Of a stretch of DNA of 32,000 bases, positions 13,690 through 24,994 are shown one piece after another. A program made the translations under genes and the position numbers. Positions within the stretch are counted from its first letter, which is position 1, and each line of letters opens with the position of its first letter. The notes below the pieces were generated by a model. That model was not told where the DNA came from, did not search any database, and was given only the letters and a program-made list of their open reading frames with translations. This stretch comes from Acaryochloris thomasi RCC1774 (lineage in GTDB: Bacteria; Cyanobacteriota; Cyanobacteriia; Thermosynechococcales; Thermosynechococcaceae), in contig NZ_PQWO01000001.1 of the NCBI RefSeq assembly GCF_003231495.1, forward strand, positions 510,001 through 542,000, written 5' to 3'.

Positions 13690-14075
13690 AATGAGTACGG
13701 TGAAAACACGTATAAATTAGTGTTTGTTTTATTTTGAAAATGGTTGATTTCCCTGATAGCTAACGATTTTGGCTGGGCATACTTGGATACAGAGAGCCAA
13801 TCATCTGCAGTATTTAAGGGGTTCAAAAAAGATAGAGCGTTCACAACAAAGGCTTTTATCTCTGGGCTGAAAAATAATTTTATTTTTCTGTCACCCAGTC
13901 AACACTCAATCTGTCTTTCTTGCCACTTGTATTGATGAAGTGACTGTTTTACAGCGGAGCTTGTTTCTAGGCCGCTGCGGTTTACTGCTGCTCTAACTTC
14001 AGTTGTGGTTCTTTCTACAAGGAGAAGCACTCTGACATTTGTGGGATCTGTCTCAAGCGGGGGAGTCCCAGTAGT
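13690..14075 (+). pseudogene. Relic of a third copy of the TIGR03032/GNAT/TPR/GT41 gene
   Basis: Only the upstream region, the start-codon region and the last roughly 100 nt survive. The upstream block ATTTTGGCTGGGCATACT (13766-13783) and the start region TTCTTGCCACTTG...ATTGATGAAGTGACTG align to 16701-16860 and 21270-21380. From about 13951 the sequence aligns to the 3' end of the gene (22178-22305 and 20412-20536). Confidence 0.55.
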
Positions 14076-14079
14076 TTTA

Positions 14080-14103
14080 CCTTGACCTCAGCGCGGGTGA
14101 AGG
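14080..14103 (+). promoter_or_regulatory. Hairpin in the conserved spacer upstream of the RTX gene (cassette 1 copy)
   Basis: CCTTGACC (14080-14087) and GGTGAAGG (14096-14103) pair with one mismatch. The homologous perfect hairpin lies at 22311-22334. Confidence 0.35.
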
Positions 14104-14146
14104 AATCCAATCTGTCTGTTGTTATTTAATTTAGTTGAGACGATTT

Positions 14147-16564
14147 ATGCCCTCTTTTAACGAGCAAACTGGCACCAATAATCCCTTTGACGGCATTGAT
14201 GCGGGGATTGAGGGTGATCCTACTTTGGTAGACGTAGATGGCGACGGCGACTTTGATCTGGTAGCGGGGGATAGCGACGGTGCGCTCAGATACTTTGAAA
14301 ATACAGGCGGTGCCACCACCCCTAGCTATAGCGAACAAACCGGCACCAACAATCCTTTTAACGGGATTGATGTGGGAGACGATAGCTCTCCTGCTTTTGC
14401 TGATATTGATGGCGACAGCGACCTTGATCTACTAGTTGGAGGAAATAATGGTGGCGTTCAACTAGAGTATTTTGAGAATATAGGTAGTGCCACTAACCCT
14501 AGCTTCAGCGCACAGACCGGCACCAATAACCCCTTGGGCAGGCTTTCTGTGGGATATGACAACTCACCTACCTTTGCTGATATCGATGGCGATGGCGACT
14601 TTGATCTAGTGGTGGGAGATGATACCAATCAGCTCAGTTACTTTGAGAATACAGGTAGTGCCACCAGCCCAAGTTTCAGCCAGATCACCGGTACTAATAA
14701 CCCATTTGAAGGTATTGGCCAGGGAATTAACAGCTCCCCCACATTGGTCGATGTGGATGGAGATGGCGACCTTGACCTAGTGGTGGGCAATGGTAACTAT
14801 ACACTCAGTTACTTTGAGAATATAGGTAGTGCCACTAACCCTAGCTTCAGCGCACAGACCGGCACCAATAACCCCTTTGACGGGCTTAACTTCGGAAGTG
14901 CTTTTGGCTCCGTTACACCTACTTTTGCCGATGTCGATGGTGATGGCAACCTCGATCTAGTCTCTGGCACAGGGCAATTAAGCTTCTTCGTCAGCAATGA
15001 ACCAGCGATCATTACTGGCGATATTTCAGGTGCAGTTACTGAAGACACTACCACTACAACTGCCACTGGCACACTAAACGCAACCGATGTTGACTCCAGC
15101 GCTGACTTCACTGTGCAAACTGATACTGCTGGTACATACGGCACCTTCTCTATCGATGCAGCTGGAGTCTGGACTTACACGCTCGACAACGCTGATGCTG
15201 ATACCGATGCTCTAGAAGCAGATGAAATGATCACGGATGTCTTCACTGTCGCCACAGCTGATGGCACAACTCAAGAGGTCACCGTCACTGTCACAGGTGC
15301 TAATGATGCAGCTATCATCGCCGGCACAACAACAGGTGCAGTCACTGAAGATGACGCTATTACGACTGCGATGGGTAGCCTAATGGCCACCGATGTCGAT
15401 TCCAGCACTGACTTCGCAGTGCAAACCGATGCAGCGGGCACCTACGGCACATTCTCCATTGACGCATCCGGCAACTGGACCTACACCCTCGATAACAGTG
15501 ATGCTGATACAGAAGCTTTGGGTTCTAGTGACACTGTTACAGATGTGATCACCGTTGCTACTGCCGATGGCACGACTCAAGATATCACCATCACCATCGA
15601 TGGCAATAGTGATACCGTTCAAATCGGTACTCCTGGCCCCGATCTAATTGTGGGAACCCCCCTCGACGATACTCTAGAAGGCTTAGATGGCAACGATCGC
15701 ATCCGTGGCCTTAACGGCAACGACCTCATCTTGGGCGGCAACCACAGTGACACCCTCTTTGGCGACGGCGGCAACGATTCCCTCTTCGGCGGCAACGGCA
15801 TCGACCGACTGTTTGGCGGCAACGGCAACGATTCCCTCAACGGTGGCAACAACAACGACACCCTCTCAGGCCAAGGTGGCGACGATACGCTCTTGGGCGG
15901 CAGCGGCAACGATATTCTCATCGGTGCTGCAGGCAATGACCTCCTGCAAGGCGGACTCGATAACGATCGCCTCGTCGGTGGCAGCAATGACGACAGGCTG
16001 TTTGGCCAAGCAGGTAACGATACTCTGATCGGAGCTAGCGGCCTCGATTCTCTGGTCGGCTCCGCAGGCAATGACCTTCTACAAGGGGGCACTGGCAATG
16101 ATTCCCTCAACGGCGGCAACGACAACGATGTGCTCGAAGGTCAAGGTGGCTTCGATATCTTAATCGGTGCCAGCGGCGACGACCTGCTCGTAGGTGGTTC
16201 TAACGATGACACACTCACAGGCGGCACTGGGTCTGATACATTCCGATTTGACGTTGGCTTCAACAGCCTCGGCCTTGATACGATTACAGACTTCGCTAGC
16301 AATGATGTACTGGAGTTAAGCCAGTCTGTCTTTGGGCTGATGGGTGCCATCGGTGGCGTCATCGATGTGAGTGACTTTGCAAGCGTTAGCTCTTTTGCTG
16401 AGGCCGAAAGCAGTGGCGCAGCGATTGCTTACAACAGTAATGACGGTAGCCTCTATTTCGATGCCAACGGCGCTGCAGCCGGATTTGGCAACGGCGGCGG
16501 TCAGTTCGCTCAGCTAGAGAACGCCTTCGACCTCCAAGCCAACCAGATTGAATTGATTGCCTAA
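14147..16564 (+). CDS. FG-GAP-repeat / VCBS-type / RTX (hemolysin-type Ca-binding) repeat protein, likely T1SS substrate
   Basis: Five blades of the form FENTGSATxPSF..QTGTNNPF..(x)PtfADIDGDGDLDLVVG (DxDxDG calcium loops). Two 101-aa VCBS-like units follow (TEDxxxTxxGxLxATDVDS...TYGTFSIDAxGxWTYTLDN). Next come about 20 GGxGNDxL nonapeptides and a C-terminal DTITDF...YNSNDGSLYFDANG domain. There is no N-terminal signal peptide. The ATG at 14147 is preferred over the TTG at 14135. Confidence 0.85.
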   Translation: MPSFNEQTGTNNPFDGIDAGIEGDPTLVDVDGDGDFDLVAGDSDGALRYFENTGGATTPSYSEQTGTNNPFNGIDVGDDSSPAFADIDGDSDLDLLVGGNNGGVQLEYFENIGSATNPSFSAQTGTNNPLGRLSVGYDNSPTFADIDGDGDFDLVVGDDTNQLSYFENTGSATSPSFSQITGTNNPFEGIGQGINSSPTLVDVDGDGDLDLVVGNGNYTLSYFENIGSATNPSFSAQTGTNNPFDGLNFGSAFGSVTPTFADVDGDGNLDLVSGTGQLSFFVSNEPAIITGDISGAVTEDTTTTTATGTLNATDVDSSADFTVQTDTAGTYGTFSIDAAGVWTYTLDNADADTDALEADEMITDVFTVATADGTTQEVTVTVTGANDAAIIAGTTTGAVTEDDAITTAMGSLMATDVDSSTDFAVQTDAAGTYGTFSIDASGNWTYTLDNSDADTEALGSSDTVTDVITVATADGTTQDITITIDGNSDTVQIGTPGPDLIVGTPLDDTLEGLDGNDRIRGLNGNDLILGGNHSDTLFGDGGNDSLFGGNGIDRLFGGNGNDSLNGGNNNDTLSGQGGDDTLLGGSGNDILIGAAGNDLLQGGLDNDRLVGGSNDDRLFGQAGNDTLIGASGLDSLVGSAGNDLLQGGTGNDSLNGGNDNDVLEGQGGFDILIGASGDDLLVGGSNDDTLTGGTGSDTFRFDVGFNSLGLDTITDFASNDVLELSQSVFGLMGAIGGVIDVSDFASVSSFAEAESSGAAIAYNSNDGSLYFDANGAAAGFGNGGGQFAQLENAFDLQANQIELIA
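15010..15615 (+). repeat. Tandem 303-bp (101-aa) VCBS-like coding repeat, two units
   Basis: Unit A starts at ATCATTACTGGCGAT (15010) and unit B at ATCATCGCCGGCACA (15313). The protein units align along their whole length. The block is absent from the paralogue at 22377-24170. Confidence 0.8.
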
Positions 16565-16600
16565 ACTACTGGTAACAAGTCAACTGAATAGATAAGCAAA

Positions 16601-16632
16601 AGCCAGCCGATCATGATCGGCTGGCTTTTTTG
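16601..16632 (+). terminator. Rho-independent terminator of RTX gene 1
   Basis: AGCCAGCCGATC (16601-16612) pairs with GATCGGCTGGCT (16615-16626), followed by TTTTTT. Confidence 0.8.
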
Positions 16633-16845: not shown

Positions 16846-19800
16846 ATGACCGCTTCTTTGAATGAGCCACGTTTATCGAGTACTCCTGGCGGTGACGCAG
16901 GTGTCGCCGCGCCAACGTTAGAGGCTACCCATTCTGAAGGGTTCGGCCATTGGCTGCAGCAACAGCAGCTCAGTCTAGCCTTTACGACCTACCAAACGAA
17001 TCGCTTATTTTGTCTGGGCACGACACAGGCAGGGAAAATGGCGCTACATGAACGCTTGTTTGATAAGCCAATGGGCCTGTTCGCCCAGGACAATCGCCTC
17101 TACATGAGTACCCGCTATCAAATATGGCAGCTCGATAATCTGCTAAGACCCGGAGAACTGCGTCAGGGTTGCGATCTCATCTACACCCCAAAACTAGCGC
17201 ACACAACCGGCGACCTCAACGTTCACGACGTGGTTATCGACGCATCCGGCGAACTTCTGTTTGTGAATACCGACTTCAACTGTTTAGCCCGTCTCAGCCC
17301 TGACTATAGCTTTGTACCGCAATGGCGACCGCCCTTTATCTCGAAATGGGTCGCCGAAGATCGCTGTCACCTCAACGGCCTCGCCCTGCGAGAGGGCAAA
17401 CCGGCCTACATGACCGCCTGTAGCAGCACCAATACAGCCGCCAGTTGGCGTCACCACCGGGTTGACGGCGGCGTCGTGATGGATATCCAAGCCAACGAAG
17501 TGATCGCCACGGGCCTCTCAATGCCCCACTCGCCACGCTGGTATCGCGGCAAGCTCTGGTTGCTCAATTCAGGGACCGGTGAACTCGGTCACATCGACTT
17601 CGACAGCGGTGCCTTTGTCCCGCTCACCTTCTGCCCCGGCTTCGTGCGGGGAATGACCTTTTGCGGCAACGTCGCCGTGATCGGTCTATCAAAATTGAGG
17701 TCAAAATCTTTCACCGGTCTAGCGCTGGAAAAACGACTAACGGCAGCGGGAGATCGCCCCCACTGTGGCTTGATGGTTGTTGACCTAGAGACCGGCAACG
17801 TTTTGCATTGGCTGCGTTTAGAGGGAGTCGTTGAAGAGCTTTTTGATGTGGTGGTGCTACCCAACGTCCGCCAGCCGCAATCTCTAGGGTTCCAGTCTGA
17901 TGAAATTGAGCGGCTAGTCACCTTCCCAGAGGCTGAAGGGATTGTGGTCACAAAACCCACGGTCAAGCGCCCGAGTTTGGCAGGCAAAGCCCCCGTTGCT
18001 GGCGTACCCCGCACCGTCTGGGATGGGCAGTCAAGCTCCTCAACGGCTTCAGTCCCGTCGATCGCTGCCGCTTTAGACTCCCTTAAGTTTCAGCACGTTT
18101 ACCATCTGACACCAGAAAATCTGGCAGACTACGACGATTTCACGTTTCCGCGTCTACGGCAGCGCTGGTCACAGCAGCCTCAGCGCGGCGAGATGCTCGG
18201 CGTATCAGCGTCGGTAGAGGGCGACATGGTGGCCTTCGGTGTGGCTGAGCTGCTGCCCGATCAGTCGGCTGAGGTGATCTCGCTTTGGGTGACCCCAGAG
18301 TACCGGCAACAAAGGATCGGACAGCGGTTGATGGCAATTCTGGAGCAGAAAGTCTGCCAAGAGGGCTGCACTAAACTGTTAATCGCCTACGAGGCCACTG
18401 CCCTTACCCAGATAGAGCCTTTATTGAAAAACTTGGGCTGGCAAGCCCTCTCTCAGAACCACACCCAGCATAGATGGCACAAAAATTTCGCACCGCAGCT
18501 TGAGAAAGAGGCACCACACCCCTTTGAGCAGGGCAAAGCCTTTGCTAAGCAAGGAGATCTAGACGCAGCCATCGCTTGCTTTACTGAGGCCCTTCGCCAA
18601 CGCCCCGACCACCTCGCCGCCTATAACCAACTGGGCAATGCCTATCAGCAGTTGGGGCAAACAGAAGATGCGATCGCAACCTATCAAGCCCTCTTAGAAC
18701 GCAATCCCAACGTCGCGCAGGCCCACGCCAACCTAGGGGCGATCTGGCAGATTCAGGGGAAAACGGGAGATGCGATCGCATCCTATCAAACCGCCATTGC
18801 CCTCAAGCCCGACTTAACCGTAGCCCATCTCAATCTAGCCAAGCTGCACGCAACAGCAGGCCAGCAAAAAAACGCTGCAGTGCATTATCAAGCGGCCCTT
18901 GCAGCCGATCCCCAACAAGTAGAAGCCCACTACGGCCTTGCCAAGGTATCGCTGACTCAGGACCATTTAGAGCAGGCAAACGCCTGTTTTCGGCAGGTTT
19001 TAAAGCTCCAGCCGGAACACTCAGCCGCTCTATTAGAGCTAGGCTTTTTGTCTGAGGCCCAAGGGCAACTAGCGGTTGCTCGTGCCTGCTACCAGAAGCT
19101 ATTTAATACCTGCCTAGAGTGGCAGCATTTAGCCGCTTACCAGCTTAGCTATGTGCGGCGGCAGCTTTGCAACTGGCAGCACGACGATGCGCGTATGACA
19201 GAGCTACTGCAGCGCCTTGAGACGCACATTGCTCAGACCGACAGTCCTGCCCTCGCCCCCTTGAGCCTGAGCGTTTTCCCCGCATCGCCAGCATTGCATC
19301 GGGCCGTGAACGAACACCACGCAGCGCAGATTCAGCGACGCATGGCCGAGACTAAAGAACGATGTCATTTCCAGCATCCTCAGGGGCCTGTCGATAAACT
19401 GCGGATTGGCTACGTCTCGCCTGATTTCCGCAATCATCCGGTGGGCTGGCTGATGCAAGATTTGTTTCAGTACCACGACCGCGATCGCTTTGAAATCTTT
19501 GCCTATAGCCTCCGCCATGCCGAAGATTCAGTGCAGGCCAACATTGAGGCCGGGTGCGATCATTTTATCGACTGCTCCCAGCTATTGCCGGAAGAGAGTG
19601 CTCACCGCATTCATGCTGATGGCATTCATATTTTGATTGATCTAGCGGGTTACACCACCTATTCTCGACCTGAGATTTTTGCGCTGCGTCCCGCACCAAT
19701 TCAGTGCAGCTATTTAGGCTATCCCGATACCACCGGTTCAGAGAGTATCGATTATCTGATCACCGATGAGTGGGTCGTGCCGCCTGCATTGGCAGCTCAC

Positions 19801-20505
19801 TGTACTGAGCAGGTGGTCTACCTACCGCATCAGTTTGTGGTATCGCCAACATTCGCAGAGTCTTGTTTGCCAAAGGCCGAGATAGATCAAGAGGTACTAA
19901 AACAAGGGAATTTAAAGCAGACCCGCCAGGACTATGGTTTACCTGCAAAGGGGTTTGTGTTCTGTTGTTTTAATCTCCATCGCAAGATCGAACCGACGGT
20001 GTTTTCGGTGTGGATGAAGATTTTGCAGCAGGTACCAAACTCAGTGCTTTGGCTCTCAGATGGGCCAGACCCGGTCAAGGTGAATCTGCGTCAGGCCGCC
20101 CAGGCTCATGGGGTTGCGGCAGAGCGATTGATTTTTGCCCCTCGGCTCCCCTTTGACGAATACTTAGCCCGCTATCAATTTGCTGATTTGTTTCTGGATA
20201 CCTTCTCCTATGGAGCGGGTTCGACCGCAATCTGCGCGCTCTCTGCAGGAGTACCTTTGTTGACCCATCCAGGCGAGACCAATGCCTCACGGATGGGGGC
20301 CAGCATTTGCGCGGCAGCGGGCTTAGAAGACTTGCTGATTTGCGACAGCATATTGACCTACGAACAAAGGGCTGTGCATCTTGCAACTCACGCAGAAGAG
20401 ATGGCGACCCTACGGCAGAAGTTACGCGGCAATCGCAGCAATTTACCGCTGTTTCAACCCCAGCAATGGATCTCTCACTGGGAAGAAACGCTAGAGAAAC
20501 TCTGA
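16846..20505 (+). CDS. Four-domain fusion protein: TIGR03032-like domain + GNAT acetyltransferase + TPR repeats + GT41 (OGT/SPINDLY-type) glycosyltransferase
   Basis: About aa 25-360 (HSEGFGHWL..LSLAFTTYQTNRLFCLG...) resembles the uncharacterised TIGR03032 family, from memory. About aa 415-545 is GNAT (VISLWVTPEYRQQRIGQRLM). About aa 560-770 holds at least 5 TPR units (AYNQLGNAYQQLGQTEDAIATYQALLERNPN etc.). About aa 780-1219 is GT41-like (RIGYVSPDFRNHPVG, LIDLAGYT, YLGYPDTTG, FCCFN, FLDTFSYGAGSTA). Confidence 0.8.
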   Translation: MTASLNEPRLSSTPGGDAGVAAPTLEATHSEGFGHWLQQQQLSLAFTTYQTNRLFCLGTTQAGKMALHERLFDKPMGLFAQDNRLYMSTRYQIWQLDNLLRPGELRQGCDLIYTPKLAHTTGDLNVHDVVIDASGELLFVNTDFNCLARLSPDYSFVPQWRPPFISKWVAEDRCHLNGLALREGKPAYMTACSSTNTAASWRHHRVDGGVVMDIQANEVIATGLSMPHSPRWYRGKLWLLNSGTGELGHIDFDSGAFVPLTFCPGFVRGMTFCGNVAVIGLSKLRSKSFTGLALEKRLTAAGDRPHCGLMVVDLETGNVLHWLRLEGVVEELFDVVVLPNVRQPQSLGFQSDEIERLVTFPEAEGIVVTKPTVKRPSLAGKAPVAGVPRTVWDGQSSSSTASVPSIAAALDSLKFQHVYHLTPENLADYDDFTFPRLRQRWSQQPQRGEMLGVSASVEGDMVAFGVAELLPDQSAEVISLWVTPEYRQQRIGQRLMAILEQKVCQEGCTKLLIAYEATALTQIEPLLKNLGWQALSQNHTQHRWHKNFAPQLEKEAPHPFEQGKAFAKQGDLDAAIACFTEALRQRPDHLAAYNQLGNAYQQLGQTEDAIATYQALLERNPNVAQAHANLGAIWQIQGKTGDAIASYQTAIALKPDLTVAHLNLAKLHATAGQQKNAAVHYQAALAADPQQVEAHYGLAKVSLTQDHLEQANACFRQVLKLQPEHSAALLELGFLSEAQGQLAVARACYQKLFNTCLEWQHLAAYQLSYVRRQLCNWQHDDARMTELLQRLETHIAQTDSPALAPLSLSVFPASPALHRAVNEHHAAQIQRRMAETKERCHFQHPQGPVDKLRIGYVSPDFRNHPVGWLMQDLFQYHDRDRFEIFAYSLRHAEDSVQANIEAGCDHFIDCSQLLPEESAHRIHADGIHILIDLAGYTTYSRPEIFALRPAPIQCSYLGYPDTTGSESIDYLITDEWVVPPALAAHCTEQVVYLPHQFVVSPTFAESCLPKAEIDQEVLKQGNLKQTRQDYGLPAKGFVFCCFNLHRKIEPTVFSVWMKILQQVPNSVLWLSDGPDPVKVNLRQAAQAHGVAAERLIFAPRLPFDEYLARYQFADLFLDTFSYGAGSTAICALSAGVPLLTHPGETNASRMGASICAAAGLEDLLICDSILTYEQRAVHLATHAEEMATLRQKLRGNRSNLPLFQPQQWISHWEETLEKL

Positions 20506-21365
20506 GATCTGTTCTAAGACAGGAAAGTCCCCATCGTGCTGCCTTCATCTTTTTGGGCCGCTTCACGGAGAATGCGGCCCATCTTAATTGAGGGGAATTG
20601 AAGAATGGAGACGGTTGCGATCGCATCGATCAACCGCTGTCTCTCTCATCAAGAACAGGCCTACTCTCACATAGATTATCCCGCAATGTCTTCATTTGCT
20701 TAGACCGCACAGCTCCAGATCAGTAAGCTATCAAGCCTGCGATATGACATCAAAAGAAATCAGCCGTCCGTCAGACACGATCAGGCGACAAGAAACTTAA
20801 AACGATAGCCATTGCGTTTTTGAAGATTGCACCACGAGGCTGAAACGCTTACCCCAAGCCACAAAAAGCAAAACAGAAGCTGTACCAGCAGAAAACAGCT
20901 TGGAGAAATCCTGTATGTTTTTAAGTCTTATTTTATTGAGCTATAAACACTCAGTTATTATCATCCTAAATACTAGGTATAACGCTGTAACCCTTGCTCT
21001 ACAAAAGTGATAGTTAACGCTCGAATATTTCTGCTCCAGAAATTCAGGTTTTTTTGTATGCTTTGATGTTCTACTTTGTTGGTTTCAAAAACAACTTTCG
21101 CATGATGTTGGCATACCTCAGAATCACATCTAGGCAATAAAAACGTGTCTAAAAACAATAGAAGCATGATGAGATGGAGTTCTACAAAAAATATTTCCAG
21201 AGAAATTTTGTATATTTTCGCGTTTGTTTTTGCTTACCGCTACGTGTTGAATTCCATTGTTATACAAAGTTTTTAGCTGGGTACACTCAATTTCAGACAG
21301 CTTAATAATTTAAATTTCAAAATTCTATATAGACTTCTTCTTCTGCCAGTTGCTCGGATTTATTT

Positions 21366-22287
21366 ATGATTGCGTCTTTGAACCCGCAACGTTTACTGAA
21401 CGTTGTGAAATTCTCCGCTGACGATAAAAATTTCGAACCCCCAGCTATAGCCTCCCAGCTAAAAGTGACTCATTCTGAAGGGTTACCCAATGGGTTACAG
21501 CATCAAGACCTGAATGTAGCTTTTACCACTCATCAAACCAACCGTCTTTTCTGCGTGAGTCTCGTCCAGAAGGACGTATAAACAATGCGTGAACGCTTGG
21601 TTGACAAGCCGATGGGTCAATTTGCCCAGAATAATTGCCTCTGCATGAGTACTCGCCATCAGAAGTGGCAGCTCGATCATTTGCTAAGGGCACGAGGGTT
21701 GCGTCAGAGTTGCGATCGCATCTATATCCCTGAACTGGCTTACACGACCGATAACCTCAAAATCCGTGAAGTGGTTCCATCTGAGTCTGTCGAACAACAG
21801 ATGTTGCGGCAGGTTCCGGGAGCAGCGCTATTGCTCTTTGATAGGACAAACTCAGTCAAGGTCAACGTGCGCCAAGCCGCACGCGCCCAGGAGCTTGATC
21901 CTGACCAACTGATCTTTGCTCCTCAGCTACCCTTTAACGAATATTTAACCCGCTATCGCTGTTCGGATCTGCTCCTAGACGCCTGCACCTACAGGGTCGG
22001 TTCGACGGCGATTGCACTCTCAGCCTGGTTGCCGTTGCTCACCCATCCTGATGCATCACAAACGGAAGCCAGTATCTGCGCAGCGGCGGGTTTCAAAGAT
22101 TTGCTCATTTGTGACAGTGCTGTTGCTTATGAGCAAAAGACAGTCCATCCTGCCACTCATGCAGGTGGGATGGCTGCCATATAGCGGAGATTATGCGAAA
22201 ACTGCAGCAGGTTTACCGCTATTCCAACCCCAGTCGTGGATTTTCTACTTGGAAGAGTCTCCTGGGAAGCTCTGGGATCTGTCTTAG
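21366..22287 (+). pseudogene. Pseudogene copy of the fusion glycosyltransferase gene
   Basis: ORFs 21366-21581, 21585-22184 and 22012-22287 align to parent aa 1-130 and about 1053-1219. The copy has one in-frame TAA at 21579-21581 and a deletion junction near 21777-21800 (parent nt about 17236-20000 missing). A frameshift near 22170 is the third lesion. Confidence 0.85.
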
Positions 22288-22310
22288 GACGGGGGAGTCC
22301 CATCGCTTTT

Positions 22311-22334
22311 CCTTCACCTCAACATAGGTGAAGG
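22311..22334 (+). promoter_or_regulatory. Hairpin in the conserved spacer between the glycosyltransferase (pseudo)gene and the RTX gene
   Basis: CCTTCACC (22311-22318) pairs perfectly with GGTGAAGG (22327-22334), 43 nt upstream of the RTX ATG. Its position is conserved with 14080-14103. Confidence 0.4.
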
Positions 22335-22376
22335 AATTCAATCTGTTCTTCATTAAATTATTAGTTGAGACGATTA

Positions 22377-24170
22377 ATGCCCACCTTTAACGAACAAACC
22401 GGCACCAATAACCCCTTTGATGGGATTAATGTTGGAAGTGACAGCCACCCTACCTTTGCCGATATTGATGACGATGGGGATCTTGATCTACTGATCGGGG
22501 ACTTTTCCGATGGCATTCTAAACTTCTTTGAGAATACGGGTAGTGCCTCTAGCCCCAGCTATGTTGAACAAACCGGCACCAATAACCCTTTCGACGGTAT
22601 TTCTAGAAGTGAAAGCACCCCCACCTTTGCCGACATTGATGGCGATGATGATCTTGATCTGGTTATTGGACAATCCTTCGGTGGCCTGAGTTTCTTTGAA
22701 AATACAGGCAGTGCCACTAGCCCTAGCTACATCGAACAAACTGGCACTGATAATCCTTTCCCTAGCGTTGGTTCAAACGATAGCAACTCTCCCTTCTTTG
22801 CCGATCTTGATGGCGACGGTGATCTCGATCTAGTCACGGGAGATGGCAATGGCACGATAAACTACGTTGAGAACACGGGCAGTGCCACTAGCCCCAGCTA
22901 CATCGAGCAAACCGGCACTAACAATCCCTTCGATGGGTTTAATGTAGGCTTTGAAAGCCAACCGGTCTTGGCTGATGTTGATGGTGATGGCGACCTTGAT
23001 CTAGTTGTTGGGGCTGGCAGTGGCACAATCAATTTCTTTGAGAACACAGGCAGTACAACCAGTCCCAACTACATCGAGCAAACCGGCACTAGCAATCCCT
23101 TCGATGGGTTTAATGTGGGGGGTGAAAGCCAACCTGTCTTGGCTGATGTTGATGGTGATGGCGACCTCGATCTAGTTGTTGGAAATGGCCCTGGCACAAT
23201 CAATTTCTTTGAGAATGCCGGGAGTCCCAATGGCGCGACCCCTGGTCCAGATCGCCTTTCAGGAACCCCTGATGACGACACTTTAGAAGGCTTAGATGGT
23301 CGAGATCGTCTCAATGGCCGAAATGGCAATGATCGCATCGTAGGCGGCAATGGTAGTGACACCCTCCTGGGTGAAGGTGGTAACGATACCCTCTTCGGCG
23401 GCAGCGGTATCGACCTCCTCTTTGGCGGTAACGGCAATGACTTTCTTAATGGGGGCAACAATAACGACACGCTGCAGGGCCAAGCGGGAGACGATACTCT
23501 TCAAGGCGGCAGCGGCAACGATATATTGATTGGCTCAACAGGAAGCGACCTGCTTCAAGGGGGACTCGACAACGACTTCCTGAGTGGGGGGAGCGACAAC
23601 GACACGCTGGTCGGCCAAGCCGGAGATGATACTCTCCTAGGCGGAAACGGACTCGATCGTCTGATCGGCACTGCAGGTGATGACCAACTAAGGGGTGGCT
23701 TCGGCAACGATACACTTAACGGCGGCAACGACAACGATGTGCTCGAAGGTCAAGCTGGTTCTGATCGCTTGATTGGCGGCGGCGGTGACGACATTCTCGT
23801 CGGTGGCTCCAGCGATGACACACTTGTAGGTGGAGTCGGGTCTGATACGTTCCGATTTGGCGGTGGCTTCAACAGCCTCGGCACCGATACGATCATAGAC
23901 CTTACCAGCGATGATGTAATGGAGTTGAGTCTGTCTGTCTTTGGTCTGACAGGTGCCATCGGTGACATCATCGATATGAGCGAGTTCGCCAGCGTCAGCT
24001 CTCTGGCTGACGCCGAAAGCAGTGGTGCATCCATCGCTTACAACAGCAATGATGGTAGCCTCTACTTCAATGCCAATGGCGCTGCAGCAGGCTTCGGTAC
24101 TGGCGGTCAGTTCGCTCAGCTCAACAATACCTTTGACCTCCAAGCCAGTCAGATTGAGTTGATTGCCTAA
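22377..24170 (+). CDS. FG-GAP-repeat / RTX calcium-binding protein (paralogue of 14147-16564, lacking the VCBS units)
   Basis: Five FG-GAP-type blades, then GGxGNDxL repeats and a C-terminal domain nearly identical to the paralogue (YNSNDGSLYFNANGAAAGFG...QIELIA). The start context TTGAGACGATTAATGCC matches 14135-14151. Confidence 0.85.
   Translation: MPTFNEQTGTNNPFDGINVGSDSHPTFADIDDDGDLDLLIGDFSDGILNFFENTGSASSPSYVEQTGTNNPFDGISRSESTPTFADIDGDDDLDLVIGQSFGGLSFFENTGSATSPSYIEQTGTDNPFPSVGSNDSNSPFFADLDGDGDLDLVTGDGNGTINYVENTGSATSPSYIEQTGTNNPFDGFNVGFESQPVLADVDGDGDLDLVVGAGSGTINFFENTGSTTSPNYIEQTGTSNPFDGFNVGGESQPVLADVDGDGDLDLVVGNGPGTINFFENAGSPNGATPGPDRLSGTPDDDTLEGLDGRDRLNGRNGNDRIVGGNGSDTLLGEGGNDTLFGGSGIDLLFGGNGNDFLNGGNNNDTLQGQAGDDTLQGGSGNDILIGSTGSDLLQGGLDNDFLSGGSDNDTLVGQAGDDTLLGGNGLDRLIGTAGDDQLRGGFGNDTLNGGNDNDVLEGQAGSDRLIGGGGDDILVGGSSDDTLVGGVGSDTFRFGGGFNSLGTDTIIDLTSDDVMELSLSVFGLTGAIGDIIDMSEFASVSSLADAESSGASIAYNSNDGSLYFNANGAAAGFGTGGQFAQLNNTFDLQASQIELIA
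22899..23240 (+). repeat. Recent tandem duplication of one FG-GAP blade (2 x 171 bp)
   Basis: Units 22899-23069 and 23070-23240 are about 90 percent identical at the nucleotide level by eye, both starting TACATCGAGCAAACCGGCACTA. They are far more similar to each other than to the other blades. Confidence 0.8.
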
Positions 24171-24206: not shown

Positions 24207-24244
24207 AGGCCAACAGATTAACGATGAATCTGTTGGCCTTTTTG
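24207..24244 (+). terminator. Rho-independent terminator of RTX gene 2
   Basis: AGGCCAACAGATT (24207-24219) pairs with AATCTGTTGGCCT (24227-24239), followed by TTTTTG. Confidence 0.8.
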
Positions 24245-24385: not shown

Positions 24386-24994
24386 TTAAGATGGCTCGCG
24401 CGCCCACACAGCTAAGCCACCCCCTCGCCCCCGAGCGGCCAGCACCGTATCGCAGATCAAGAAATAGGCAAAGAACGCCTGTTGCCCCACCTTCCGCTGA
24501 TAGAACTTCGCTTCACTGGCTTCACCCTTGCGGATAAAACTGTCGAACAGCTTCACGCCATAAACCCTGACCGCCATGCGCGTAAAATCAAAGGCCATAA
24601 TGTTCTGAGGTGACAAAAACTTCGCGGGGCCTGAAACGGATAGGTGAATGCCCAGAAACTTGATGTCGTTGGCGATTGTACCCGCCGTAAATTTTTCTCC
24701 TGAGTTCTCCGCTGGCTGTTCTCTGGGCGTGTAGGACAGAGAAATAGAGGCCAGCTTCGGTAAATATCGACCGGCCCCCATCACTGGCCCTGCTTTCTTC
24801 TGCGTTTTTTTCGTGCCGGTGATAAAGCAAAGTCGCCAGTCCCCGACTAGTTGATCAAAGCCATGACTCTCCCTGGAATGTCTGCTTATGTTCTCGGCCT
24901 CAAGACAAGCTTCTCGTACAGCGTCAGGGGCAGGTCGCTCCGCAGCATTGAATGCCTTTTGAGCGGCCTGTTCTAGAATCTCAACCGGTGACAT
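24386..24994 (-). CDS. Hypothetical protein, PAP/fibrillin-like
   Basis: 202-aa ORF. GDWRLCFITG and the C-terminal DTVLAARGRGGGLAVWAR are reminiscent of the fibrillin/plastoglobulin family. Weak, motif-level only. Confidence 0.4.
   Translation of the reverse strand: MSPVEILEQAAQKAFNAAERPAPDAVREACLEAENISRHSRESHGFDQLVGDWRLCFITGTKKTQKKAGPVMGAGRYLPKLASISLSYTPREQPAENSGEKFTAGTIANDIKFLGIHLSVSGPAKFLSPQNIMAFDFTRMAVRVYGVKLFDSFIRKGEASEAKFYQRKVGQQAFFAYFLICDTVLAARGRGGGLAVWAREPS

Follow-up and report, generated by a model that had tools for sequence, protein, structure and literature searches.

A DUF4915–GNAT–TPR–GT41 fusion gene of Acaryochloris thomasi and its putative role in tailoring adjacent FG-GAP/RTX exoproteins

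The 32,000-nucleotide stretch of the Acaryochloris thomasi RCC1774 genome analysed here (contig NZ_PQWO01000001.1, positions 510,001 to 542,000; hereafter the window) carries a gene that fuses a DUF4915/TIGR03032 domain, a GNAT acetyltransferase-like domain, tetratricopeptide repeats (TPRs) and a GT41 glycosyltransferase domain, and that lies between two genes for leaderless FG-GAP/RTX exoproteins (Table 1). Its product is probably a cytoplasmic multi-domain tailoring enzyme dedicated to these adjacent exoproteins. The preliminary description of the gene had proposed a functional link between the enzyme and its neighbours, and such a link is now very likely, backed by synteny across phyla, by genomes in which the domains are split into separate genes, and by the contexts of the four-domain homologues. 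That the exoproteins are actually glycosylated is put forward with more reserve, as the somewhat favoured outcome.

Coupling of DUF4915 genes to FG-GAP/RTX genes

Loci with DUF4915 genes were retrieved from species-representative genomes with the invariant peptides SMPHSPRW and EDRCHLNG as patterns. The patterns matched at least 590 stretches, and 80 loci were fetched. All-against-all clustering of 1056 open reading frames (ORFs) from 84 loci reveals a single widely shared neighbour family, the FG-GAP/RTX genes, with 69 ORFs in 46 of the 84 loci. These neighbours mostly lie immediately downstream of the DUF4915 gene on the same strand, and the loci span cyanobacteria, Nitrosomonas, methanotrophs, Massilia and other Burkholderiales, Desulfocapsa, Planctomycetes and alphaproteobacteria. 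The coupling is also evident independently of ORF calls when six-frame translations are scanned for the FG-GAP calcium loop, D.[DN].[DN]G..[DE]. Within 2 kb of the DUF4915 gene the loops occur at 0.7–1.0 per kb, ~10–15 times denser than at 8–10 kb (0.06–0.07 per kb). Clusters of at least three loops are present in 37 of the 80 loci, the nearest cluster lying no more than 3.05 kb away in all 37, and in 24 of the 42 loci that have at least 4 kb on both sides.

Comparisons of individual loci provide two further lines of evidence. First, an FG-GAP_3/RTX gene adjoins each four-domain homologue whose flanks could be used (L001, L002, L004 with two copies, L005, L015, L086 and L087). Judged by Pfam context, the fusion gene is followed by an FG-GAP_3/cadherin gene in L001, its start is overlapped by an FG-GAP_3 gene in L002 (Cyanobium), and it is followed by a 272-aa gene, an FG-GAP_3 gene and an RTX gene in L086 (Synechocystis salina); in L087 it stands between two FG-GAP_3/cadherin/RTX genes, the same order as in the window. 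Second, the domains also occur as separate genes. In a Methylobacter locus (L088), genes for a TPR-GT41 protein (693 aa), a DUF4915-GNAT protein (488 aa) and an FG-GAP_3/SWM-repeat/RTX protein (1410 aa) are consecutive, and in five Burkholderiales-type loci (L022, L035, L042, L053 and L057) a separate GT41 gene lies just upstream of a DUF4915-only gene, with an FG-GAP/RTX gene adjoining most of them. Because the domains are fused in one lineage and encoded by separate adjacent genes in another, they are expected to work together (the Rosetta stone argument). Stand-alone DUF4915 genes (~350 aa, without an enzyme domain) are the commonest partners of FG-GAP genes. It is DUF4915, not GT41, that defines the partner, and DUF4915 alone suffices for synteny.

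The partners fall into two types that co-vary with the GNAT domain. In type A (NPF-type) partners, which include both exoproteins of the window, the blades are joined by F-x-N-T-G-S-A-T-N/S-P-x-F/Y...T-x-N-P-F; type B partners have classical integrin-like blades with L-N-G-S-N-G-F...S-V-S-x-A-G-D-V-N-G-D-G. The partners of GNAT-bearing genes, whether or not TPR-GT41 is present, are of type A at 13 loci and never of type B, and those of DUF-only genes are of type B at 17 loci and never of type A (Fisher's exact test, 8e-9, a value that overstates the evidence because the loci are not phylogenetically independent). The pattern holds across cyanobacteria, Nitrosomonas, methanotrophs, Massilia and Desulfocapsa, and this co-variation links GNAT with the NPF-type repeat. 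NPF-type proteins have a conserved N-terminus (MP[ST]FNEQTGTNNPF, MxDPxF..TNPFG), which was considered as a recognition leader and rejected, being the first copy of the inter-blade repeat; this copy probably closes the propeller.

A third neighbour class is found at seven loci (L017, L018, L023, L026, L065, L066 and L079). Its genes, often divergently oriented, share a conserved N-terminal module with the consensus ..LVIIDSAI.D.Q.L..G......V..L....DGI.QI......I.SLH.VSHGSPG.L.LG, which we take to resemble DUF4347, and they include neighbours of DUF4915-TPR-GT41 forms without GNAT (L017, L018 and L066).

The fusion protein and its GT41 and GNAT domains

Pfam and NCBIfam scans bear out the uninterrupted four-domain ORF of the preliminary description, whose quoted peptides, AFTTYQTNRLF and HSPRWYRGKLWLLNSGTGELG, are both found in the protein. 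Pfam DUF4915 (PF16261) matches aa 33–346 (E 7e-134), and NCBIfam TIGR03032 scores 469.3 bits against a cutoff of 251.5, with aa 26–359 corresponding to profile positions 2–334/335. The Ser/Pro-rich stretch noted earlier before the GNAT core behaves as a linker, because aa 365–412 are poorly conserved and gapped in homologues. Acetyltransf_1 (PF00583) follows at aa 429–513 (39.2 bits, cutoff 20.7), then five to six TPRs, in agreement with the minimum of five counted before, and Glyco_transf_41 (PF13844) from aa 774 to the C-terminus (E 1e-95; 321.5 bits, cutoff 25).

One expectation of the preliminary description, that the domain combination is unusual and undescribed, does not hold. A search of 5.8 billion proteins returns full-length DUF4915+GNAT+TPR+GT41 relatives at 47–78% identity in Calothrix PCC 7507, Nostoc, Anabaena, Cyanobium, Synechocystis salina, Microcystis and others, and dozens of cyanobacteria carry the architecture. 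Variants among the relatives are without GNAT or without GT41, or have added GT2, NodZ-like, GT11 or sulfotransferase domains. Even Nitrosomonas and Methylococcaceae have a DUF4915+GNAT form, of two domains and ~500 aa, that shares 62–68% identity with the window protein.

The fusion protein is 100% identical to P0001 of A. thomasi RCC1774, and the NCBI label on the identical A. thomasi protein is 'lipopolysaccharide assembly protein B' (LapB). LapB models reach at most 41.5 bits against cutoffs of 363–474 and match the TPRs only, so the name derives from the TPRs alone. The label would suit a protein involved in polysaccharide, lipopolysaccharide (LPS) or S-layer glycan assembly, or in glycosylation of some other surface protein such as a pilin. 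Relatives fused to GT2, NodZ-type or GT11-type glycosyltransferases point the same way, as does S. elongatus Ogt, a cyanobacterial GT41 homologue reported to be required for pilin glycosylation (PMC9306852). Such a role is nevertheless highly improbable given the failure of the LapB models, the housekeeping genes in the flanks with no polysaccharide, LPS, pilin or other glycan genes within the window, and the fact that the characterised GT41 members considered (OGT, SPY and HMW1C/NGT) are all protein glycosyltransferases.

The GT41 alignment covers both catalytic lobes of human OGT (hOGT; 5npr, E 1.3e-83), XcOGT (1.2e-61) and SPINDLY (SPY; 4e-38), and of TtOGT too. As in these enzymes, a TPR superhelix precedes the N-Cat/C-Cat lobes; the ~110-residue intervening domain of hOGT is missing, as in XcOGT. 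The equivalents of hOGT D554, H558 and K842 are kept as D860, H864 and K1047, the latter two being invariant in 17 homologues. Their counterparts in SPY, H495 and K665, are indispensable, and mutation of either abolishes activity (PMC9715652). Two other positions depart from hOGT: H498 is replaced by L806, as in SPY (L439), and C917 by Y1122, which is invariant in the family and matches SPY Y744, XcOGT Y463 and TtOGT Y419. A tyrosine at the C917 position (SPY Y744, XcOGT Y463) is reported to clash with the GlcNAc of UDP-GlcNAc, and another donor has been suggested (PMC9715652). Y1122, which takes the place of the small residue that marks a strict O-GlcNAc transferase, therefore speaks against UDP-GlcNAc as the donor. 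The OGT/SPINDLY-like catalytic region assigned in the preliminary description thus stands, with the catalytic residues conserved, and the GT41 part is, on these residues, probably an active OGT/SPY-type protein O-glycosyltransferase that likely uses a donor other than UDP-GlcNAc. Four hOGT residues that we take to be UDP contacts, K898, H901, H920 and D925, align with F, Y, G and C in the fusion protein.

The preliminary description had also invoked HMW1C/NGT-type enzymes and NxS/T sites in the neighbours as possible targets. The sites are present, 10 in exoprotein 1 and 8 in exoprotein 2, together with the Ser/Thr-rich blade motif, of which each exoprotein has four copies (N[TI]GS/GAT.P.[YF]...TGT.NP[FL]). 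The NGTferase model NF049992, however, stays far below its cutoff of 1000, at 34.2 bits, and matches aa 1099–1203 alone, so that N-glycosylation of this type is not supported. Since the enzyme is OGT/SPY-like and the NGT model fails, the NxS/T sequons are not likely targets.

A kinship with OGT could also mean that the protein is a general OGT/SPINDLY-like regulator of many intracellular proteins and that its place beside RTX genes is without functional significance. Among PDB entries, hOGT matches the whole fusion protein best (E 1.7e-147), and some relatives are named 'protein O-GlcNAc transferase' in source databases. A regulator of this kind would not explain why the neighbourhood is conserved across phyla, why the split genes also lie beside FG-GAP/RTX genes, or why a decayed fusion copy stands upstream of exoprotein 2, as if the gene pair had been duplicated as a unit. 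The ladder Asn is kept in just two of the five to six TPRs (N629, invariant, and N663, nearly invariant, in alignment A1), and Tyr1122 occupies the position where GlcNAc use needs Cys. A general regulator is accordingly quite improbable.

The family profile of the GNAT domain finds RimI first in the PDB (5isv, E 7e-7), then Naa60, YpeA and other N-alpha-acetyltransferases, with the low similarity that is common between GNATs. Motif A, the acetyl-CoA pyrophosphate loop (Q/R-x-x-G-x-G/A), reads RQQRIG here and RQQGIG/A in most relatives, and it deviates in P0103, P0052 and P0009 as well. Both exoproteins (809 and 601 residues) contain no Lys and no Cys, and the ratio of acidic residues to Arg is 131:8 in exoprotein 1 and 100:10 in exoprotein 2. 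Lysine acylation of the HlyC type, or lysine acetylation, was therefore rejected as a modification of these two proteins. This leaves the N-terminal amine, a hydroxyl group or an amino sugar as candidate GNAT acceptors. Partners at other loci are lysine-poor (mostly 0–3%, one 4%) but rarely lysine-free.

The DUF4915 domain and a candidate mechanism

An AlphaFold model of the DUF4915 domain, built from a 40-sequence alignment, gives the previously uncharacterised N-terminal region a confident all-beta fold (pLDDT 91, pTM 0.91) of about six four-stranded blades, a beta-propeller. Foldseek matches in the PDB are generic six- to eight-bladed propellers (TM ~0.4–0.55, ~10–14% identity), including YVTN, LRP6 YWTD, virginiamycin B lyase, NHL and Kelch, and because only generic propellers match, the fold assigns no chemistry. 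Arylsulfotransferase, glutaminyl cyclase and PAL-type enzymes, considered because APS kinase and sulfotransferase recur nearby, are not among the 50 best matches. In a sample of 129 diverse DUF4915 domains (median identity 43%), D172-R173-C174-H175, S229-P230-R231, R268, S282, E331, W160 and W201 are at least 95% conserved; the family motifs EDRCHLNG and SMPHSPRW are both present in the fusion protein. This pattern of conservation suggests an active site or a metal site more than a purely structural role.

Scanned exhaustively with HMMER, 1.84 billion cluster representatives yield 2433 DUF4915 clusters at E <= 1e-10, and DUF4915/TIGR03032 clusters (50% identity) are spread across many phyla. 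Neither DUF4915 nor TIGR03032 is mentioned in any paper of the literature searched. Elsewhere the domain is fused to GT2 and DUF707, to GT41 on either side, to GNAT, to NTP_transf_5, and to a sulfotransferase together with an Asp/Asn beta-hydroxylase. The last arrangement is seen in P0342 and P0372; P0342 has no FG-GAP neighbour on a contig that is short and hence uninformative. An APS kinase (CysC-like) gene recurs beside DUF4915 or FG-GAP genes at six loci (L007, L022, L025, L028, L041 and L063). Together, the APS kinase neighbours and the sulfotransferase/hydroxylase fusions suggest that the same system has branches for sulfation and hydroxylation. Given its varied fusions and neighbours (GT2, GT41, GNAT, NTP_transf_5, sulfotransferase, hydroxylase and APS kinase), DUF4915 is therefore a constant hub for variable protein-tailoring enzymes.

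Such a hub could work without chemistry of its own, as a dedicated cytoplasmic chaperone or secretion adaptor that holds FG-GAP propellers unfolded or hands them over to the type I exporter, with GT41 and GNAT secondary and directed at other substrates. This would account for the abundance of enzyme-free stand-alone DUF4915 genes beside FG-GAP genes, for the generic propeller matches, many of which are binding modules (YWTD, Kelch, NHL), and for the type I secretion parts (ABC, TolC-like) that adjoin some DUF4915 genes. Three features make it unlikely. Conservation is very high for a chaperone, at 62–68% between cyanobacteria and Nitrosomonas or methanotrophs; the contiguous D-R-C-H with invariant Ser, Arg and Glu in 129 members resembles an active or metal site; and the repeated fusions to tailoring enzymes, with the co-variation of GNAT and partner type, tie the added enzymes to the same substrates.

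For the dedicated tailoring enzyme, the following course is plausible. The exoproteins would remain unfolded in the low-calcium cytoplasm until type I secretion. The DUF4915 propeller would dock the repeat protein, or perform a core modification of its own, and the short TPR superhelix would guide an extended part of the substrate to the GT41 active site. This part is likely the Ser/Thr-rich region between blades, N-T-G-S-A-T-S-P-S-Y..T-G-T-N-N-P-F, with FENTGSATSPSYIEQTGTNNPF as a candidate acceptor peptide, and here GT41 would O-glycosylate Ser/Thr with a sugar that is probably not GlcNAc. GNAT may then add a second, acetyl-type modification specific to NPF-type FG-GAP proteins.

It is also conceivable, as a tentative extension, that DUF4915/TIGR03032 is itself a new protein-modifying enzyme whose Asp-Arg-Cys-His site places a core modification on the FG-GAP blades. 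If so, GT41, GNAT, GT2, sulfotransferase, Asp/Asn hydroxylase and nucleotidyltransferase would be interchangeable accessory modules around a DUF4915 enzyme, and the system would amount to a so far undescribed but widespread route of maturation for large, secreted repeat proteins that bind calcium, applying to whole proteins a logic like that of ribosomally synthesized and post-translationally modified peptides (RiPPs). The four-domain protein of the window would then be the most elaborate single-chain form of the pathway.

Several observations weigh against a dedicated tailoring enzyme. An FG-GAP neighbour is absent from ~40% of well-flanked loci, so the synteny is frequent and not universal. 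At one locus (L085, 1–14078), an NTP_transf_5-DUF4915 gene lies within a RiPP-like cluster without an FG-GAP gene, together with an NTP_transf_5-TPR-GT41 gene, a JmjC protein, an 81-aa ORF, a PqqD-like protein and a nitroreductase; DUF4915 and GT41 thus co-occur outside the FG-GAP context too. Within the window, a terminator-like hairpin separates exoprotein 1 from the fusion gene, so they may be transcribed separately, and no type I secretion genes are found in the window, the flanks being housekeeping. As to the enzyme itself, the Arg that replaces the first Gly of motif A may impair this GNAT copy, the partners' lack of lysine removes the commonest GNAT protein acceptor, and several bacterial GT41 enzymes (XcOGT, TtOGT) show little or no activity in vitro (PMC9715652).

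Comparison with known systems places the proposed tailoring enzyme partly on familiar ground. As in the HMW1C/NGT-HMW1 and EtpC/EtpA-type systems, a soluble GT41-family enzyme is encoded beside a large secreted repeat protein that is its presumed substrate, and modification by HMW1C/NGT is likewise reported to take place in the cytoplasm before secretion (PMC3012730, PMC10507012). Unlike HMW1C/NGT, the fusion enzyme is OGT/SPY-like, with TPRs, DUF4915 and GNAT; O-linkage is expected rather than N-linkage, and export is presumably by the type I (RTX) route rather than by two-partner secretion. It differs from OGT and SPINDLY in its few TPRs with two ladder Asn, in the propeller and GNAT placed in front, and in its synteny, which assigns it to secreted FG-GAP/RTX proteins instead of nucleocytoplasmic targets. 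In HlyC/CyaC-type systems, a small cytoplasmic acyltransferase encoded with the RTX protein modifies internal lysines before type I secretion (reviewed in PMC3034196). Here too a cytoplasmic acyl/acetyltransferase-type enzyme is encoded with an RTX protein, but the window partners have no lysine and the GNAT domain is closest to the N-alpha-acetyltransferases RimI and Naa60. RiPP maturation offers an analogy only, in that a constant DUF4915 module is combined with varying enzymes (GT41, GT2, GNAT, sulfotransferase, Asp/Asn hydroxylase, nucleotidyltransferase) and one DUF4915 relative is clustered with a PqqD-like protein; the presumed DUF4915 substrates are repeat proteins of 600–3000 aa without a leader peptide, not short precursors.

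Systems in which a cytoplasmic GT41 enzyme is encoded beside its exoprotein substrate are thus already known. Novelty lies in the DUF4915 hub, the cross-phylum coupling to FG-GAP genes, the matched GNAT and partner types, and an OGT-like domain, presumably not a GlcNAc enzyme, aimed at apparent type I substrates. The cyanobacterial RTX surface proteins SwmA and oscillin, which function in motility, are reported as glycoproteins, and the RTX review that covers them names no enzyme for their glycosylation (PMC3034196). By analogy, a tailoring enzyme would fit these reports and that of pilin glycosylation, as well as the logic of HMW1C/HMW1 and HlyC/HlyA. The side-by-side pairing of enzyme and presumed substrate makes the question of SwmA/oscillin-type glycosylation directly testable, and it gives the large unstudied DUF4915/TIGR03032 family a concrete, testable partner. 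FG-GAP/RTX exoproteins are abundant and poorly understood surface or extracellular proteins in cyanobacteria, nitrifiers, methanotrophs and planctomycetes. To our knowledge, most bacterial GT41 members have no known substrate; the system would extend bacterial GT41 biology, and the fusion enzyme may use a different donor sugar.

The exoproteins and the local history of the window

The two exoproteins are paralogues whose RTX part is HemolysinCabind (Pfam); exoprotein 1 has two extra cadherin-like/Big_9 domains. The region of exoprotein 2 is similar in DNA sequence to 13979–16595, and blastn pairs 22210–23176 with 13979–14961. Remnants of fusion-type genes stand upstream of both exoprotein genes. 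Before exoprotein 1 there is a short relic of the 3' end, and directly upstream of exoprotein 2 lies a degraded copy in which a 199-aa ORF (21585–22184) is still open across the junction. The presence of both remnants indicates that the ancestral unit was a fusion gene followed by an exoprotein gene, duplicated as a unit and partly eroded. The same order, fusion then exoprotein, is also found in other genomes.

Table 1. Features of the fusion gene and its surroundings in the window
Feature	Position	Strand	Details
Short relic of fusion-type 3' end (...W.F.L..E....LWDLS)	13979..14060	+	~20 codons; upstream of exoprotein 1
Exoprotein 1, FG-GAP_3 + cadherin-like/Big_9 + RTX	14135..16564	+	809 aa; likely start ATG 14147 (MPSFNEQ...)
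Terminator-like hairpin	16598..16629	both directions	14-bp stem, flanking A/T runs; just after exoprotein 1
Four-domain fusion gene, DUF4915-GNAT-TPR-GT41	16846..20505	+	1219 aa; ATG ORF; Pfam and NCBIfam matches
TIGR03032/DUF4915 domain, beta-propeller	16921..17922	+	aa 26-359; motifs D172-R173-C174-H175, S229-P230-R231
Ser/Pro/Ala-rich linker, poorly conserved	17938..18081	+	aa 365-412; gapped and variable in alignment A1
GNAT acetyltransferase-like domain	18085..18480	+	aa ~414-545; Pfam Acetyltransf_1
GNAT motif A	18304..18321	+	aa 487-492; first Gly replaced by Arg
TPR units, five to six	18508..19125	+	aa ~555-760; Pfam TPR matches; align to hOGT TPRs
GT41 catalytic domain, without intervening domain	19165..20484	+	aa 774-1213; Glyco_transf_41; key residues D860, H864, K1047, Y1122
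Degraded fusion-gene copy	21366..22272	+	aa 1-136 and 1017-1219 kept, ~50% identical, interior lost (tblastn)
Exoprotein 2, FG-GAP_3 + RTX, paralogue of exoprotein 1	22365..24170	+	601 aa; likely start ATG 22377 (MPTFNEQ...)
Terminator-like hairpin	24207..24239	both directions	13-bp stem, flanking A/T runs; just after exoprotein 2

Between the fusion gene and its degraded copy, the ~860 bp at 20506–21365 lack a convincing ORF and do not resemble the RTX genes. Right after the island, a 202-aa ORF on the minus strand (24386–24994) has no Pfam match at E <= 0.001, and an Rfam scan of the window finds no known RNA family. Both exoprotein genes share a conserved leader of ~110 nt on the plus strand (14041–14146 and 22271–22376). 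The two pairings in this leader are represented by two sequences only and hence have no real covariation evidence. One is an internal hairpin, CCTTSACC...GGTGAAGG; in the other, a 5' segment, GGGATCTGTCTYA, can pair with the stretch just before the likely ATG, TTAGTTGAGACGATT.

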